Source of the DNA: a virus
Lineage: Duplodnaviria; Caudoviricetes
DNA length: 64,000 bases
IMG/VR virus record: IMGVR_UViG_3300032334_001433
Location: 138,666-202,665 of that record
Reading direction: 5' to 3' (one strand)
A model generated the notes under the pieces. The model saw only the letters and a program-made list of their open reading frames with translations. It was not told the origin of the DNA and did not search any database. Below, in pieces: positions 26,540-32,018 of the stretch (positions within the stretch are counted from its first letter, which is position 1; each line of letters opens with the position of its first letter). The position numbers and the translations under genes were made by a program.

Positions 26540-26635
26540 ATGTTAAGTAAACTAATAGCCCACGGAAAAGACATTTATGGCACACAGCCAGAATGCTTTG
26601 CGCGTCCAAATTCATGGAGAGTGCATCGAGGGTAA
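26540..26635 (+). CDS. 31-aa leader peptide containing all 20 amino acids (putative attenuator)
   Basis: SD AAGGA 26528-26532; MLSKLIAHGKDIYGTQPECFARPNSWRVHRG*. Confidence 0.75.
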   Translation: MLSKLIAHGKDIYGTQPECFARPNSWRVHRG

Positions 26636-26662
26636 GTTTACAGAACATTTCTGAAATCTAAC

Positions 26663-26700
26663 AAACCCTCGGTACCCGCAAAGTCCGAGGGTTTTTTATT
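26663..26700 (+). terminator. Intrinsic (attenuator) terminator
   Basis: AAACCCTCGG/CCGAGGGTTT stem followed by TTTATTTT. Confidence 0.85.
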
Positions 26701-26740
26701 TTAAGTATCCTAGCAAAGCAAAGGGTCTTTAAAATAAGAG

Positions 26741-26769
26741 TTGACAAGGTGTCAAGAGTGTGCTATAAT
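26741..26769 (+). promoter_or_regulatory. Sigma70 early promoter of tRNA array
   Basis: TTGACA-N17-TATAAT with extended TG; palindromic -35 region. Confidence 0.88.
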
Positions 26770-26842
26770 AGACACATAAACAGCAACAGAATGATAGAGT
26801 TAGTTGCTTAGTTCTTTTAAAATTTGTATACCATTTTTAAGT

Positions 26843-26916
26843 GTTCGGTTAGCTCAATAGTAGAGCATACGACTGATAATCGTAAGACAGAGGAGCGTTA
26901 CCTCTACCGAATACCA
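26843..26916 (+). tRNA. trnI: tRNA-Ile(GAT)
   Basis: TACGA-CTGATAA-TCGTA; atypical T-loop AGCGTTA; CCA. Confidence 0.85.
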
Positions 26917-26921
26917 TATGT

Positions 26922-26997
26922 GTCCTGTTCATCTAGCGGCCTAGGATAGTACCCTTTCACGGTATTCACACGGGTTCAAATCCCGTACAGGACTCCA
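26922..26997 (+). tRNA. trnE: tRNA-Glu(TTC)
   Basis: GTACC-CTTTCAC-GGTAT; CCA. Confidence 0.92.
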
Positions 26998-27000
26998 TAT

Positions 27001-27226
27001 TAAAATGTATTAGGTTACCAACCCAGTAGGTGATCTAGGAGAGGATTAATCTGTGGCCGCACAGACTCTGCCTAGACACATGAAAGATAGAGATCGACTT
27101 TGAATTGATCTTGGCGTCGCGCTGGAGTAAGTTGGATGGTAATGTGAATGACGACCAGTCGCATGACGAATGCGTGGTTAGTCCCAGTGGGATTGTTGTC
27201 GGACATCCTAGTACATTTTAATATGG
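27001..27226 (+). ncRNA. Unidentified highly structured RNA (~220 nt) within tRNA array
   Basis: 20-bp closing helix (26995-27014/27207-27226) plus at least 7 nested helices; no ORF. Confidence 0.75.
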
Positions 27227-27232
27227 ATATAT

Positions 27233-27308
27233 GTGCGCGTGACCCGAACGGTTAGGGAGCGGATTGCAAATCCGTATCATGCAGGTTCGACTCCTGTCGC
27301 GCACTCCA
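27233..27308 (+). tRNA. trnC: tRNA-Cys(GCA)
   Basis: GCGGA-TTGCAAA-TCCGT; U73, CCA. Confidence 0.92.
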
Positions 27309-27378
27309 AGTGATGATTTAGATGTTAAACTGAATGCGCTAGCAAACGTCCAATCAGGTGCGAAGCCTGTCCTAATTT

Positions 27379-27454
27379 GGTCTTAAAGTGTTCATGGACG
27401 CACGACGGCTTGTCACGCCGTAAGAGCGGGGATCGTTACCCCCTAAGACCGCCA
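27379..27454 (+). tRNA. trnD: tRNA-Asp(GTC)
   Basis: ACGGC-TTGTCAC-GCCGT; G73; atypical T-loop ATCGTTA. Confidence 0.85.
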
Positions 27455-27465
27455 AATTTTATTAT

Positions 27466-27542
27466 GCCCTGGTGACGGAATTGGTATACGTACTGGTCTT
27501 AGAAACCAGGTTCTGGGAGTTCAAGTCTCCCCTAGGGCACCA
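27466..27542 (+). tRNA. trnL: tRNA-Leu(TAG), short variable loop
   Basis: CTGGT-CTTAGAA-ACCAG; A73 CCA. Confidence 0.88.
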
Positions 27543-27593
27543 AATACTCGCTTTGACTTATGGCGTATAATAGGCTAAGTAATAAGTCACCTT

Positions 27594-27669
27594 GGGGGAT
27601 TAGCTCATTTGGTAGAGCATCTGCTTTGCAAGCAGGGGGCGATCAGTTCGAATCTGATATTCTCCACCA
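27594..27669 (+). tRNA. trnA: tRNA-Ala(TGC)
   Basis: Anticodon TGC, G3:U70, CCA. Confidence 0.93.
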
Positions 27670-27679
27670 GAATTTTTTT

Positions 27680-27755
27680 GCCGGTTTAGCTCATTTGGTA
27701 GAGCAGGCGCCTTGTAAGCGTCAGGTGGTCAGTTCGAAACCGACAACCGGCACCA
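27680..27755 (+). tRNA. trnT: tRNA-Thr(TGT)
   Basis: GGCGC-CTTGTAA-GCGTC; CCA. Confidence 0.92.
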
Positions 27756-27761
27756 GTATTT

Positions 27762-27835
27762 GCGGGGTTCATTTAATGGTAGGATTTCAGCCTTCCAAGC
27801 TGATAGCGCGAGTTCGATTCTCGCACCCCGCTCCA
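27762..27835 (+). tRNA. trnG: tRNA-Gly(TCC)
   Basis: TCAGC-CTTCCAA-GCTGA; CCA. Confidence 0.93.
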
Positions 27836-27841
27836 ATTTTT

Positions 27842-27919
27842 CCGTGTGTAGCGCAGTCTGGTTAGCGCATCTGCTTTGGGAGCAGAGGGTCGGGAGTTCG
27901 AATCTCTCTACACGGACCA
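27842..27919 (+). tRNA. trnP: tRNA-Pro(TGG)
   Basis: TCTGC-TTTGGGA-GCAGA; CCA. Confidence 0.93.
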
Positions 27920-27925
27920 TTTTAT

Positions 27926-28000
27926 TCCTCGATAGCTCAGAGGTAGAGCAGCAGACTGTTAATCTGTTGGTCCGTGGTTCGACCCCACGTCGAGGAGCCA
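27926..28000 (+). tRNA. trnN: tRNA-Asn(GTT)
   Basis: GCAGA-CTGTTAA-TCTGT; CCA. Confidence 0.93.
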
Positions 28001-28006
28001 GTTTTA

Positions 28007-28093
28007 GGATGCGTGTGCCGAATGGTGAAGGCAGCTGACTGTAAATCAGTGACATAAGAAACGTTGGTGGTTCGAGTCCATCCGCATCCACCA
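28007..28093 (+). tRNA. trnY: tRNA-Tyr(GTA)
   Basis: GCTGA-CTGTAAA-TCAGT; long variable arm; CCA. Confidence 0.93.
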
Positions 28094-28097
28094 AAAC

Positions 28098-28172
28098 GCC
28101 TTGTTAGCTCAGCGGTAGAGCAGCGCCCTTACAAGGCGACGGTCGGCAGTTCAATCCTGTCACAAGGTACCA
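28098..28172 (+). tRNA. trnV: tRNA-Val(TAC)
   Basis: CGCC-CTTACAA-GGCG; CCA. Confidence 0.92.
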
Positions 28173-28193
28173 TTTTTATTTTAAGGAAATTTT

Positions 28194-28463
28194 ATGAACT
28201 ATATCCCATTGCAGAACAAAGTTCTGGTCATTGAGAATGAAAAGAAAAAAGTTACAGATAGCGGAATCTATTTAGGTGAAGCTAATGGAGACAGCAATAC
28301 TCGAGCAGGTACAGTTCTTGCTATTGGGCCGGATGTTAAAGAAGTAAAGGTTGGAGATATTGTTTATCCTATGTGGACAAAATCAAAAGTAGTTAAAGAC
28401 GGAGACTTGTATATTGGAATTATATCTGAAGAAGATATTCTTGCAGTTGTAGAAGCTGAATAA
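28194..28463 (+). CDS. groES: GroES-like co-chaperonin
   Basis: PLQNKVLV, T.SGIYL, GTVLAIGP, VKVGDIV. Confidence 0.9.
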   Translation: MNYIPLQNKVLVIENEKKKVTDSGIYLGEANGDSNTRAGTVLAIGPDVKEVKVGDIVYPMWTKSKVVKDGDLYIGIISEEDILAVVEAE

Positions 28464-28470
28464 GATTTTT

Positions 28471-28545
28471 CTGCCGATAGTTCAACGGATAGAACAGTAG
28501 CCTTCTAAGCTATTAATAGAGGTTCGATTCCTCTTCGGCGGACCA
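28471..28545 (+). tRNA. trnR: tRNA-Arg(TCT)
   Basis: GTAGC-CTTCTAA-GCTAT; CCA. Confidence 0.92.
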
Positions 28546-28552
28546 TTTTTGT

Positions 28553-28626
28553 TGGGGGTTAGTGTAGCGGTAACACTACAGACTTTGACTCTGTCATCAC
28601 TGGTTCGATCCCAGTACCCTCTGCCA
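28553..28626 (+). tRNA. trnQ: tRNA-Gln(TTG)
   Basis: ACAGA-CTTTGAC-TCTGT; CCA. Confidence 0.92.
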
Positions 28627-28680
28627 AATTTTTTAAAAAGGAGATCTGTCATGAATAGTGACAAGAGTGATAAGATATAC

Positions 28681-28756
28681 GGGACGTTAGCTCAGTTGGT
28701 AGAGCAGTAGACTTTTAATCTATTGGCCATTGGTTCGAATCCAATACGTCCTACCA
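28681..28756 (+). tRNA. trnK: tRNA-Lys(TTT)
   Basis: GTAGA-CTTTTAA-TCTAT; CCA. Confidence 0.93.
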
Positions 28757-28771
28757 TAAAACTTTTTAGGT

Positions 28772-28844
28772 GTGGCCTTAGTGTTAGCGGTTAGCACCTC
28801 GGATTGTGATTCCGATAGGATGGATTCGAATTCCATAGGCCACC
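28772..28844 (+). tRNA. trnH: tRNA-His(GTG), no encoded CCA or G-1
   Basis: TCGGA-TTGTGAT-TCCGA; C73; flanked by 13-bp inverted repeat. Confidence 0.85.
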
Positions 28845-28861
28845 CCTAAAAAGTTTTTATT

Positions 28862-28937
28862 GCCGCGGTAGCTCATCAGGTAGAGCAGCAGACTGAAAAT
28901 CTGTGTGTGGATGGTTCGAGTCCATCTCGTGGCACCA
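28862..28937 (+). tRNA. trnF: tRNA-Phe(GAA)
   Basis: GCAGA-CTGAAAA-TCTGT; CCA. Confidence 0.93.
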
Positions 28938-28951
28938 ATTTAGAAAAATAT

Positions 28952-29028
28952 GTCTCGGTAGCTCAATTAGGCAGAGCAGTGGCCTCCAAAGCCAAAGGTT
29001 GTAAGTTCGATTCTTACCCGGGATGCCA
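28952..29028 (+). tRNA. trnW: tRNA-Trp(CCA)
   Basis: TGGC-CTCCAAA-GCCA; G73 CCA. Confidence 0.9.
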
Positions 29029-29037
29029 AAGAATAAC

Positions 29038-29125
29038 GGAAGATTGGCAGAGTGGCCGATTGCATCAGTCTTGAAAACTGAAGGCTCGAAAGGGTCCGTG
29101 AGTTCGAATCTCACATCTTCCTCCA
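29038..29125 (+). tRNA. trnS: tRNA-Ser(TGA)
   Basis: TCAGT-CTTGAAA-ACTGA; long variable arm. Confidence 0.93.
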
Positions 29126-29130
29126 AATAA

Positions 29131-29220
29131 GGAGAGCGGGCAGGATGGTAATGCAGCAGATTGCTAATCTGTAGACTATAGTAATATGGTCACAGGGTTC
29201 GACTCCCTGGCTCTCCACCA
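29131..29220 (+). tRNA. trnS: tRNA-Ser(GCT)
   Basis: GCAGA-TTGCTAA-TCTGT; long variable arm. Confidence 0.92.
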
Positions 29221-29225
29221 ATTAA

Positions 29226-29260
29226 GGACAGATGCAAGCACTAGCTTGTTGAGTCCACCA
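29226..29260 (+). ncRNA. CCA-terminated minihelix (tRNA relic or mimic)
   Basis: GGAC/GTCC + CAAGC-ACTA-GCTTG + ACCA. Confidence 0.4.
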
Positions 29261-29265
29261 ATTTA

Positions 29266-29342
29266 CGGCCCTTAATTCAACTGGATAGAAAGCAAGTCTT
29301 CGAAACTTGAGGTTGGGAGTTCGAATCTCTCAGGGCCGGCCA
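29266..29342 (+). tRNA. trnR: tRNA-Arg(TCG)
   Basis: CAAGT-CTTCGAA-ACTTG; CCA. Confidence 0.9.
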
Positions 29343-29349
29343 TATATAT

Positions 29350-29425
29350 GGTAACGTAGCATAGTGGCTAATGCACCACCTTCATACGGTGTTTATCGTC
29401 GGTTCGAGTCCGACCGTTACTACCA
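29350..29425 (+). tRNA. trnM: tRNA-Met(CAT), elongator-like
   Basis: CACC-TTCATAC-GGTG; GGTAACG acceptor. Confidence 0.8.
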
Positions 29426-29431
29426 AATAAT

Positions 29432-29505
29432 GCGGGTATGATGTAATGGTAGCTTATGACCTTGCCAAGGTTAATGTGAGAGTTCGATTCTCTCTACCCG
29501 CTCCA
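29432..29505 (+). tRNA. trnG: tRNA-Gly(GCC)
   Basis: TGACC-TTGCCAA-GGTTA; weak D-stem; CCA. Confidence 0.88.
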
Positions 29506-29526
29506 TGTTTTTAAATGAGGTGAATT

Positions 29527-30009
29527 ATGAGAAAGATAAATATTGCTGAAGTAAAAGCTTTTATTGAAGCTCAAAGTCTAGAAACCAAAATTTACATTGG
29601 TGCGGATTCTGAAAGATATAAACGCGACGGTAAATGGTATGCAGATTATACTCTCGCAATTGTAGTTCACATCGATGGACGACATGGTTGTAAGATTTTT
29701 GGTGAAGTACAAACTGAGATTGACTATGATTCTAAGGCTCAAAGGCCTTCGATGCGTCTAATGACAGAAGTGCACAAAGTTGCAGATTTGTATCACTTGA
29801 TAGAAGATTGCATTGGAGAACGGGAAGTTGAAATCCATTTGGATATTAACCCTGATCTAAGGCATAACAGTTCTATAGTGATTCAACAAGCAGTTGGTTA
29901 TATCAAAGGTACTTGTAATGTTGTACCAATGGTTAAGCCAAACGCATTTGCGGCTTCTTATTGTGCAGACCGTTTGAAGGAAATTTTAGCATATCAACAA
30001 GCAGCATAA
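29527..30009 (+). CDS. RNase H-like YkuK-family protein
   Basis: KIYIGADSE, RLMTEV, EIHLDIN. Confidence 0.8.
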   Translation: MRKINIAEVKAFIEAQSLETKIYIGADSERYKRDGKWYADYTLAIVVHIDGRHGCKIFGEVQTEIDYDSKAQRPSMRLMTEVHKVADLYHLIEDCIGEREVEIHLDINPDLRHNSSIVIQQAVGYIKGTCNVVPMVKPNAFAASYCADRLKEILAYQQAA

Positions 30010-31464: not shown

Positions 31465-31547
31465 GCCCGAGTGGTGGAATGGTAGACACAGGAGACTTAA
31501 AATCTCCCGCCTAGTGCGTGCTGGTTCGAGTCCGGTCTCGGGTACCA
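31465..31547 (+). tRNA. trnL: tRNA-Leu(TAA)
   Basis: GGAGA-CTTAAAA-TCTCC; long variable arm; CCA. Confidence 0.93.
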
Positions 31548-31568
31548 ATTTTTATTATAGGAGTTAGT

Positions 31569-32018
31569 ATGTCAGTTACAATTAAAAACTTAGAAAGTGC
31601 TTTGGCGGGCGAAAGCCAAGCACACGTTAAGTATCGGTATTTCGCAAAGATTGCCCGAGCAGAGGGATACGAAGAAATCGCCAAACACTTTGAGCATACA
31701 GCAGACCAAGAATTGCTACACGCTTGGGGTCACTTGGAATTGTTGATCGGTAAACCGTCAACTAAAGAATGTTTGGAAAAAGCCATTGAAGGCGAAACAT
31801 ACGAATTCACAGTGATGTATCCAGAGTTTAAGACTCAGGCAATACTTGAAGGTGCAACACCTGCTGTTTATATTGCAGAAGAACAGATTCAAGAATCTAA
31901 AGAACACGCTGAACAATTCAAAGAAGTATTAGCAAAAGCACAGAAACGATTTGCAGCATTGACTAACGTTGAGAAACGTCATGCCGCAGCATATCAACAA
32001 AAATTGGAGGCACTATAA
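31569..32018 (+). CDS. Rubrerythrin (di-iron domain only)
   Basis: NLESALAGESQA..KY.YFA.IA..EG, ELLH, GETYE, ESKEH. Confidence 0.9.
   Translation: MSVTIKNLESALAGESQAHVKYRYFAKIARAEGYEEIAKHFEHTADQELLHAWGHLELLIGKPSTKECLEKAIEGETYEFTVMYPEFKTQAILEGATPAVYIAEEQIQESKEHAEQFKEVLAKAQKRFAALTNVEKRHAAAYQQKLEAL

Follow-up and report, generated by a model that had tools for sequence, protein, structure and literature searches.

Background

Structured RNAs in phage tRNA arrays are already a known kind of element, and the stable RNAs of the bacteriophage T4 tRNA cluster have been known since the 1970s. GOLLD and ROOL RNAs measure about 500-800 nt, and we know of no role assigned to either of them or to the stable RNAs of T4. 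HDV folds are small double pseudoknots, and theta ribozymes are minimal examples of the HDV fold. In bacterial rRNA operons a promoter, boxB and boxA are followed by a long helix, formed by the flanks of the 16S or 23S rRNA, that is cut by RNase III; tRNA-Glu lies in the rRNA-operon spacer and tRNA-Asp is distal in some operons. GOLLD and ROOL (Rfam RF01998 and RF03087) are large ornate RNAs, often of phages or prophages, which occur near tRNA arrays and form homo-oligomeric complexes (PMC12286853), and the theta (HDV-like) ribozymes of gut phages abut tRNA 3' ends, with a proposed role in tRNA 3' maturation (PMC10879173). A published catalogue of 8,495 candidate structured RNAs from IMG/VR contains, in its accessible portion, motifs of 29-151 nt only, and may include a fragment of the RNA described here.

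This RNA is encoded in the window (the whole stretch of DNA that was analysed, 64,000 nt), which makes up the final 64 kb of an IMG/VR virus record; this record is 202,665 bp long, complete and bounded by direct terminal repeats. The interval is the gene for a structured non-coding RNA of roughly 190-230 nt and represents a new family. Like T4 rnaC and rnaD (NC_000866, 70908-71171), the RNA is non-coding and lies in a T4-type tRNA cluster, on the tRNA strand and directly beside a tRNA; rnaC and rnaD are 119-139 nt long and follow tRNA-Arg, whereas members of the present family measure 175-217 nt without the outer stalk and are tied to tRNA-Glu or tRNA-Asp. The original prediction had drawn an analogy to the T4 stable RNAs, which holds for genomic context but not for the RNAs themselves: when T4 positions 69000-74500 were searched with our covariance model R1 with filters off, no match overlapped rnaC/rnaD (locus positions 1909-2172) and all scores were 5.6 bits or lower.

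As in rRNA operons, a sigma70 promoter and a boxA-like leader lie upstream, a helix of at least 20 bp is formed by the flanks of a structured RNA, and tRNA-Glu stands just before this stalk, with tRNA-Asp just after it in several family members. Unlike in rRNA operons, the enclosed RNA is about 190 nt long and has no rRNA similarity (Rfam; blastn against E. coli), and RNase III cleavage is putative. An origin as an rRNA relic was considered and rejected, as blastn against 5,426 E. coli genomes gave no match to any E. coli DNA, rRNA included. The element shares with theta ribozymes an edge near a tRNA 3' end (in about 30 loci the closing helix P1 takes in the last 3 nt of tRNA-Glu), but theta ribozymes stand behind many tRNA types, mainly in gut phages, whereas the RNA studied here is larger, nearly tRNA-Glu-specific and mostly aquatic; an HDV-family match was absent at E<=10, and the fold is nested and not a double pseudoknot. 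It is three to four times smaller than GOLLD and ROOL, and no large ornate family was matched in Rfam at E<=10. Terminal inverted repeats are shared with MITE-like elements, but dispersed copies and a consistent target-site duplication are absent here (five genomes).

Searches of the whole window with Rfam at the gathering score returned only tRNAs and noise, as did searches with Rfam 15 (4227 families, permissive filters, E<=10) of positions 26600-29700, eight relatives' loci and a typical member. None of the curated Rfam 15 models for RNase P RNA, tmRNA, 6S, SRP, group I intron, T-box or known riboswitches matched; the earlier reading that the element lacks tmRNA, RNase P, SRP and group I signatures agrees with the E<=10 check, which gave nothing on the element. 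The model for YrlA (bacterial Y RNA) gave weak matches on tRNAs and none on the element, and neither a Ro60 (TROVE) domain nor a CCA-adding enzyme was found in the 202,665-bp phage genome.

Locus and operon signals

A run of 23 tRNA genes on the + strand surrounds the element (ARAGORN, Rfam). The upstream signals and flanking genes are as follows.

26741-26769, + strand: sigma70-type promoter of the tRNA operon (TTGACA, 17 nt, TATAAT), read in the sequence
26810-26823, + strand: boxA-like leader element AGTTCTTTTAAAAT, resembling the rrn antitermination boxA, read in the sequence
26922-26997, + strand: tRNA-Glu(UUC), by ARAGORN and Rfam; helix P1 begins with its CCA (26995-26997)
27233-27308, + strand: tRNA-Cys(GCA), the next operon gene, by ARAGORN and Rfam

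In the window, tRNA-Ile and tRNA-Glu separate the promoter and boxA from the RNA. A TTGACA-17-TATAAT-like signal was found 124-283 nt upstream of the RNA in 19 of the 21 tRNA-Glu-linked loci scanned, and inspection by eye gave a similar promoter in most of the loci that lack an upstream tRNA and also in members located in Cys-Asp spacers. Many family loci carry a close boxA variant, TGTTCTTTAAA, upstream of the tRNA-Glu/RNA unit or of the RNA itself, and a small hairpin lies 5' of it; Nus factors may bind this boxA-like element. From this promoter and boxA layout, the RNA appears as the first, second or third product of an early-type unit with an rRNA-operon-like leader.

The tRNA array also encodes an 89-aa GroES/Cpn10 homologue (28194-28463, Pfam E = 6e-13) between tRNA-Val and tRNA-Arg, which is kept at the same array position in relatives, and the distal tRNAs are flanked by an RNase H-like (PF04308) protein (29527-30009) and a rubrerythrin-like protein (31518-32018).

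Fold and architecture

The + strand of the 232-nt interval folds at -83.1 kcal/mol, against a dinucleotide-shuffle mean of -58.9 +/- 4.2 (z = -5.72; 0 of 200 shuffles as good), and the reverse strand deviates less (z = -4.95). Covariation supports a nested fold of 12 helices, arranged in the window as follows.

26995-27014, + strand: P1, 5' strand of the 20-bp closing stalk (folding, inverted-repeat search)
27015-27026, + strand: 5' strands of P1a (TTAC), P2 (CAAC) and P2a (CCAG), with GGUUA invariant (alignment; P2 and P2a covary, P1a is unvarying)
27027-27086, + strand: long arm P3-P3b-P4, with the apical hairpin TCTGTG-GCCG-CACAGA at 27050-27065 (alignment)
27087-27121, + strand: P5, a hypervariable hairpin that differs in length and sequence among members (alignments; only two basal pairs alignable)
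27122-27146, + strand: 3' strands of P2a, P2 and P1a and the invariant GUAAUGUG junction (alignment)
27144-27206, + strand: 3' domain with P6, P7 and a three-way junction with P8 and P9 (alignment)
27207-27226, + strand: P1, 3' strand, ending 6 nt before tRNA-Cys (folding, inverted-repeat search)

The stalk P1 leads into a three-way junction that contains a single-U linker and a helix, UUAC/GUAA, without any variation. The 5' domain consists of P2, P2a, the long arm P3-P3b-P4 and the hypervariable P5, and the 3' domain of P6, P7 and a second three-way junction carrying the hairpins P8 and P9. The long arm is flanked by the invariant junction strands GUAGG and CA.GA, whose AGUA/GAA pattern suggests that they may form an S-turn, and the P8 loop is GACGA at 27165-27169, of which GACG is nearly invariant. 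Double changes were found in 5/6 pairs of P3, 5/5 of P3b, 6/6 of P4, 5/5 of P7, 5/9 of P8 and 5/5 of P9.

The inner helices first proposed from the single sequence compare well with this family-wide fold. CTAGG/CCTAG, AGAG/CTCT, CTGTG-gccg-CACAG, GACGAC/GTTGTC, CGCAT/ATGCG and TCCC/GGGA each contain covarying pairs. A proposed TTACCA/TGGTAA helix had to be divided, in that its TTAC/GTAA part (27015-27018 / 27139-27142) is conserved and its CA belongs to a covarying CAAC/GTTG helix (27019-27022 / 27131-27134), and the proposed AGATCGA/TTGATCT helix sits in the hypervariable P5 (27087-27121) and is not conserved.

Covariation and conservation

Covariance model R1 (192 positions, 61 pairs) was built from eight sequences, and its structure was checked by hand. 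When 40 distinct sequences were aligned under guidance of the model, standard pairs made up 96.5% of 2,316 cells, double changes occurred in 44 of the 61 pairs (369 cells) and the covariation score was 0.451. Because the alignment was fitted to the model, it favours the structure; this bias is mitigated by controls with shifted partners and by an independent result from MAFFT and RNAalifold. When the 3' partners were slid by 1-3 columns, pairing was 30-39%, with 10-21 compensated pairs, and RNAalifold on a plain MAFFT alignment recovered 45 pairs, 22 of them with compensatory changes. The observed pairing, double-change and covariation values were attained by 0 of 500 shuffles. One pair is G-U in 29 of the 40 sequences and many others pass through G-U, and these G-U pairs place the RNA on the + strand, which is the tRNA strand. 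The structured non-coding RNA of the original prediction is thereby upheld as a conserved, heavily covarying family.

Of the alignment columns, 30 never vary and a further 32 reach at least 90% conservation, the conserved set including GGUUA, GUAGG, CA.GA, GUAAUGU, the near-invariant GACG loop and the final CC before P1. Conservation of junctions and loops at such a level is typical of a specific tertiary fold, as in ribozymes, aptamers and RNP cores, and would not be expected of spacers.

Two coding-related ideas were tried and rejected. Mimicry of codons by the invariant GAA in CA.GA (a Glu codon) and the GAC of the P8 loop GACG (an Asp codon) was dropped because GAA fits the AGUA/GAA S-turn better, the bases that follow vary as P5, and the chance of finding two such triplets among about 25 conserved unpaired triplets was estimated at about 15%. 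A tmRNA-like tag ORF was also discarded, the sole in-frame ATG stretch being restricted to one subgroup.

Family members and distribution

The RNA is present in a single copy in its own genome and in exactly one copy in each of five complete or near-complete genomes; a T4-type Gp23 capsid gene was found in all four of the relatives' genomes tested (164-353 kb). Loci gathered through two flanking proteins held full-length copies in just two relatives, at 87-88% identity. An exact 19-mer from one hairpin tip retrieved 22 IMG/VR contigs, all 22 of which matched model R1, and a second, independent word from the 5' junction retrieved 27 further IMG/VR loci, 26 of which match the model. Nearly all of the 49 IMG/VR loci are full-length, the exceptions being contigs that end inside the element and L124, for which no match was reported. 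The second word also occurs in 73 metagenome contigs, among which there are 66 full-length model matches and one match cut by a contig end; the metagenome set comprises 52 distinct cores. Judged from the run labels, the RNA is found mostly in lake and other aquatic metagenomes.

Searches with blastn (word size 11) of the window copy and a typical member against 50,697 GenBank phages found nothing, or noise at E=8. Among 185,579 prokaryote species the exact 19-mer had one match, which is attributed to chance because it covers the hairpin only, lacks nearby tRNAs and has a model E-value of 0.05. A full-text literature search for the conserved hairpin sequence gave no match. As far as searched, the family is confined to uncultured T4-type phages.

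Arrangement relative to tRNA genes

The RNA is on the tRNA strand in all loci and was found in four arrangements. In the first, tRNA-Glu lies directly upstream (about 30 of 49 IMG/VR loci; in the metagenome set, about 28 of 52 distinct cores) and P1 begins with its CCA, the two overlapping by 3 nt, or by 4 nt in some metagenome cores; one metagenome core has tRNA-Ile in place of tRNA-Glu in the upstream slot, and the downstream tRNA is variable (Lys, Cys, Asp, His, Met, Ala or Tyr). In the second, there is no upstream tRNA for 225-4,900 nt and tRNA-Asp or tRNA-Glu follows, after 6-9 nt in many loci and 100-190 nt in others. The third comprises divergent members (L004, L052 and their kin, E = 1e-6 to 1e-10) in the Cys-Asp spacer, in which the RNA starts about 10 nt past the promoter -10 box and abuts tRNA-Asp (0 or -1 nt). 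In the fourth, seen in L109, L123 and nine metagenome cores, there is no tRNA within the fetched DNA. Of the clues to function, the strongest is that the RNA is linked almost exclusively to tRNA-Glu and, in second place, to tRNA-Asp; this linkage is partly inherited synteny, yet it persists through much reshuffling of the downstream tRNAs and through three different arrangements.

Closing stalk P1

The sole inverted repeat of 12 nt or more within positions 26900-27320 is formed by the P1 arms (26994-27014 and 27207-27227; 21 nt, 95% complementary, one U-G pair). An outer helix that includes the tRNA-Glu CCA and has one G-U pair had been proposed from the sequence, and both this search and the fold bear it out. 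The inner 8 bp of P1 are included in the covariance model, with double changes in 6 of the 8 pairs, and one P1 pair is U-A, U-G and C-G across the three closest copies. P1 is 20-22 bp long in tRNA-Glu-linked members and in members with a long upstream leader, and just about 9-10 bp in L004 and L052, which begin at the promoter -10 box and abut tRNA-Asp.

A long AU-rich hairpin is present in every relative, with the tRNA-Glu CCA paired to UGG at its base. Many core-less relatives have a plain hairpin of 17-19 bp with a 4-nt loop and P1-like arms, in a spacer of 35-43 nt, and in other relatives the hairpin loop holds unrelated structured inserts of 83, 112, 123, 146-150 or 199 nt. Since relatives keep the hairpin with no core or with unrelated inserts, the stalk appears to be valuable independently of the RNA that it encloses. 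Analogy and context make an RNase III processing stalk the preferred interpretation of the outer helix, and RNase III-type release of the core is taken as likeliest because the stalk is long exactly where RNA on both sides needs detaching; an RNase E site at the AU-rich base of P1 is just as conceivable. An RNase III domain was not found in the phage's own 202,665-bp genome, so that cleavage of P1 relies on an assumed host enzyme.

Members without an upstream tRNA have an upstream copy of CATATAG and a T-arm-like hairpin that are able to pair with the P1 5' strand and so displace the P1 3' strand. This alternative pairing would give a tRNA-like minihelix, which may serve as a switch or as a handle for RNase P, or may be an intermediate of folding; a simple excision model does not account for it. 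In L095 (5400-5540), L093 and L110, the region 5' of the RNA contains a promoter, a small hairpin, the boxA-like GTTCTTTAAAAAG and then the tRNA-like minihelix, which consists of a 7-bp stem and a T-arm-like hairpin (5-7-nt loop) and whose 3' strand doubles as the P1 5' strand, and in these loci the minihelix and P1 pairings are mutually exclusive.

Transcription

One 151-nt contig from a freshwater metatranscriptome covers positions 27039-27184 at 98% identity with three differences, which is compatible with transcription but could also reflect DNA carry-over. In the four RNA runs examined, the other RNA-library contigs cover only the neighbouring tRNAs and derive from relatives. Small shares of the stretch occur in six public RNA runs, and a run search with the core only gave just the same run. 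The data show the family, its fold and strand, the single copy number and the genomic context; co-transcription with the tRNAs, cleavage of P1, stability of the RNA and a function in trans are what we infer.

Proposed function and alternatives

We consider it somewhat better than even (probability about 0.55) that the element encodes a stable RNA gene product that is excised through P1, as an RNase III-type stalk, and acts in trans. The RNA would be transcribed together with the tRNAs from the early sigma70-type promoter with its rrn-like boxA leader, and would fold into a pair of multi-helix domains that meet at a three-way junction and are held together by P1, in which the 3' CCA region of tRNA-Glu is predicted to pair with the bases immediately 5' of the next tRNA. 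If P1 is handled like the stalks of rRNA operons, it would be cut by an RNase III-type enzyme of the host, and this cut would free the core as a discrete stable RNA and part the two flanking tRNAs, which would then be trimmed by RNase P and 3' exonucleases. The freed RNA may act in trans through its 30 invariant, mostly junction and loop, nucleotides, as a protein- or RNA-binding scaffold or as a catalyst, in a role probably linked to tRNA-Glu and tRNA-Asp or to translation.

A cis-acting tRNA-maturation device, possibly a new self-cleaving ribozyme, that makes the tRNA-Glu 3' end, the next tRNA 5' end or both, is unlikely. The P1 edge coincides with the tRNA-Glu CCA (-3), the 3' edge is -2 to +10 nt from the next tRNA in many loci, the many invariant unpaired nucleotides would fit a catalytic core, and a precedent exists in theta ribozymes, whose cleavage site is within 1 nt of phage tRNA 3' ends (PMC10879173). 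Against this, no known self-cleaving class was matched in Rfam (E<=10), relatives handle the same junction with a plain hairpin, and L109, L123 and nine metagenome cores lack a neighbouring tRNA in the fetched DNA; moreover, some 190 conserved nucleotides far exceed the needs of a small ribozyme, and the CCA lies inside the helix, whereas HDV-like ribozymes have the tRNA end at the helix 5' edge. The absence of a terminator or other expression platform after P1 speaks against a cis-regulatory leader of the tRNA operon, a riboswitch-like sensor or a processive antitermination RNA in the manner of put or EAR that would act on transcription of the downstream tRNAs. This reading gains from the constant promoter-proximal position of the element (gene 1, 2 or 3 after the sigma70 promoter and boxA-like element) and from the upstream segment that competes with the P1 3' strand for its 5' strand in loci without an upstream tRNA, as in riboswitch P1 switching, but a complete tRNA-Glu intervenes between leader and element in most loci, no riboswitch or antiterminator family was matched in Rfam, and cutting of the downstream tRNAs by RNase P would detach the RNA from the polymerase; we regard it as improbable.

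The terminal repeats of a small mobile element had also been suggested for the outer helix, and a selfish or passively exchanged, functionless cassette would move as a non-autonomous unit, bounded by 20-bp terminal inverted repeats, that inserts into, or recombines at, the palindromic hairpin behind tRNA-Glu. Its inverted terminal arms (21 nt, 95% complementary), its patchy occurrence among close relatives, in which the hairpin is empty or contains unrelated inserts or two tandem inserts, and a P1 sequence conserved beyond the requirement for pairing are what such a unit would show. The element is nevertheless single-copy in 5/5 genomes, there is neither a transposase nor a consistent duplication of the target, and the left arm opens with the CCA of the tRNA, findings that tell against the mobile-element suggestion; that selection acts on the RNA can be read from its G-U pairs and from the P1 pair that is U-A, U-G or C-G in different copies, and a passive insert would be unlikely to keep 30 invariant interior columns and dense covariation. 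We therefore hold a functionless cassette to be very improbable.

T-box leaders and the L15 loop of RNase P hold the tRNA CCA by UGG pairing. A bolder and unlikely proposal is that the RNA belongs to a new large functional class that works on or through tRNA-Glu and tRNA-Asp, either as a CCA-holding ribozyme or sensor (by UGG pairing) or as a decoy. Were the decoy version true, the RNA would protect tRNA-Glu and tRNA-Asp, or their synthetases, from host defence, and the unit of tRNA-Glu and RNA would be a functional module beyond mere gene order.

Further RNA modules of the tRNA arrays

A second helix-closed module of about 148 nt, with a perfect AU-rich stalk of 18-19 bp and a GC-richer core, was observed at L014:5189-5336 and in the L002/L013 contig. 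In the two closest relatives this module comes after the first RNA, and in the Glu-Cys spacers of L004, L008, L024 and L052 it occupies the tRNA-Glu hairpin by itself; one of its inner hairpins varies among copies yet stays paired, and it has no Rfam match. A conserved RNA of about 190 nt, here called type 2, occurs in Cys-Asp spacers (L043:5823-6071, L005:340-594 and L028:5010-5268; also L030:7206-7641), after an in-array sigma70 promoter and before tRNA-Asp, which is the slot of the divergent family members in L004 and L052. Rfam searches of the type 2 RNA returned only noise. The 70-nt Cys-Asp spacer of the window (27309-27378) resembles a 3' remnant of the type 2 RNA, with the end TCCTAATTT.

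The tRNA-Glu hairpin hosts at least four other unrelated inserts of 83-199 nt (L061:5711-5822, L071:4632-4745, L063:5794-5876, L017:4905-5027 and L023:4702-4900), and exchange of cores within a conserved stalk is suggested by one insert that has a near-P1-identical stalk but a different, smaller core. Recurrent ORF-free spacers were also observed between Asp and Leu (about 281 nt, L005:671-951), Pro and Asn (about 217 nt, L005:1227-1443), Gln and Lys (about 127 nt, L005:2134-2260) and Arg and Trp (about 200-216 nt). In many relatives the same pairs of tRNAs enclose such spacers of 100-300 nt, which group into sequence clusters and are mostly absent from the window; they may be further uncatalogued RNAs.

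Conclusions

The element represents a real and widespread RNA family in T4-type lake phages, and the family, its fold and its stalk anchored in the CCA of tRNA-Glu are new. It is mid-sized and very well defined by its 12 helices, its 30 invariant nucleotides and a set of over 40 distinct sequences, and it has a specific genomic signature of one copy per genome, an rrn-like leader, and either fusion to the tRNA-Glu CCA or a position before tRNA-Asp. This signature and the small size of the unit make the question experimentally tractable. With several further uncatalogued RNA modules in the same arrays, annotation pipelines that record only tRNAs overlook a layer of phage RNA biology.
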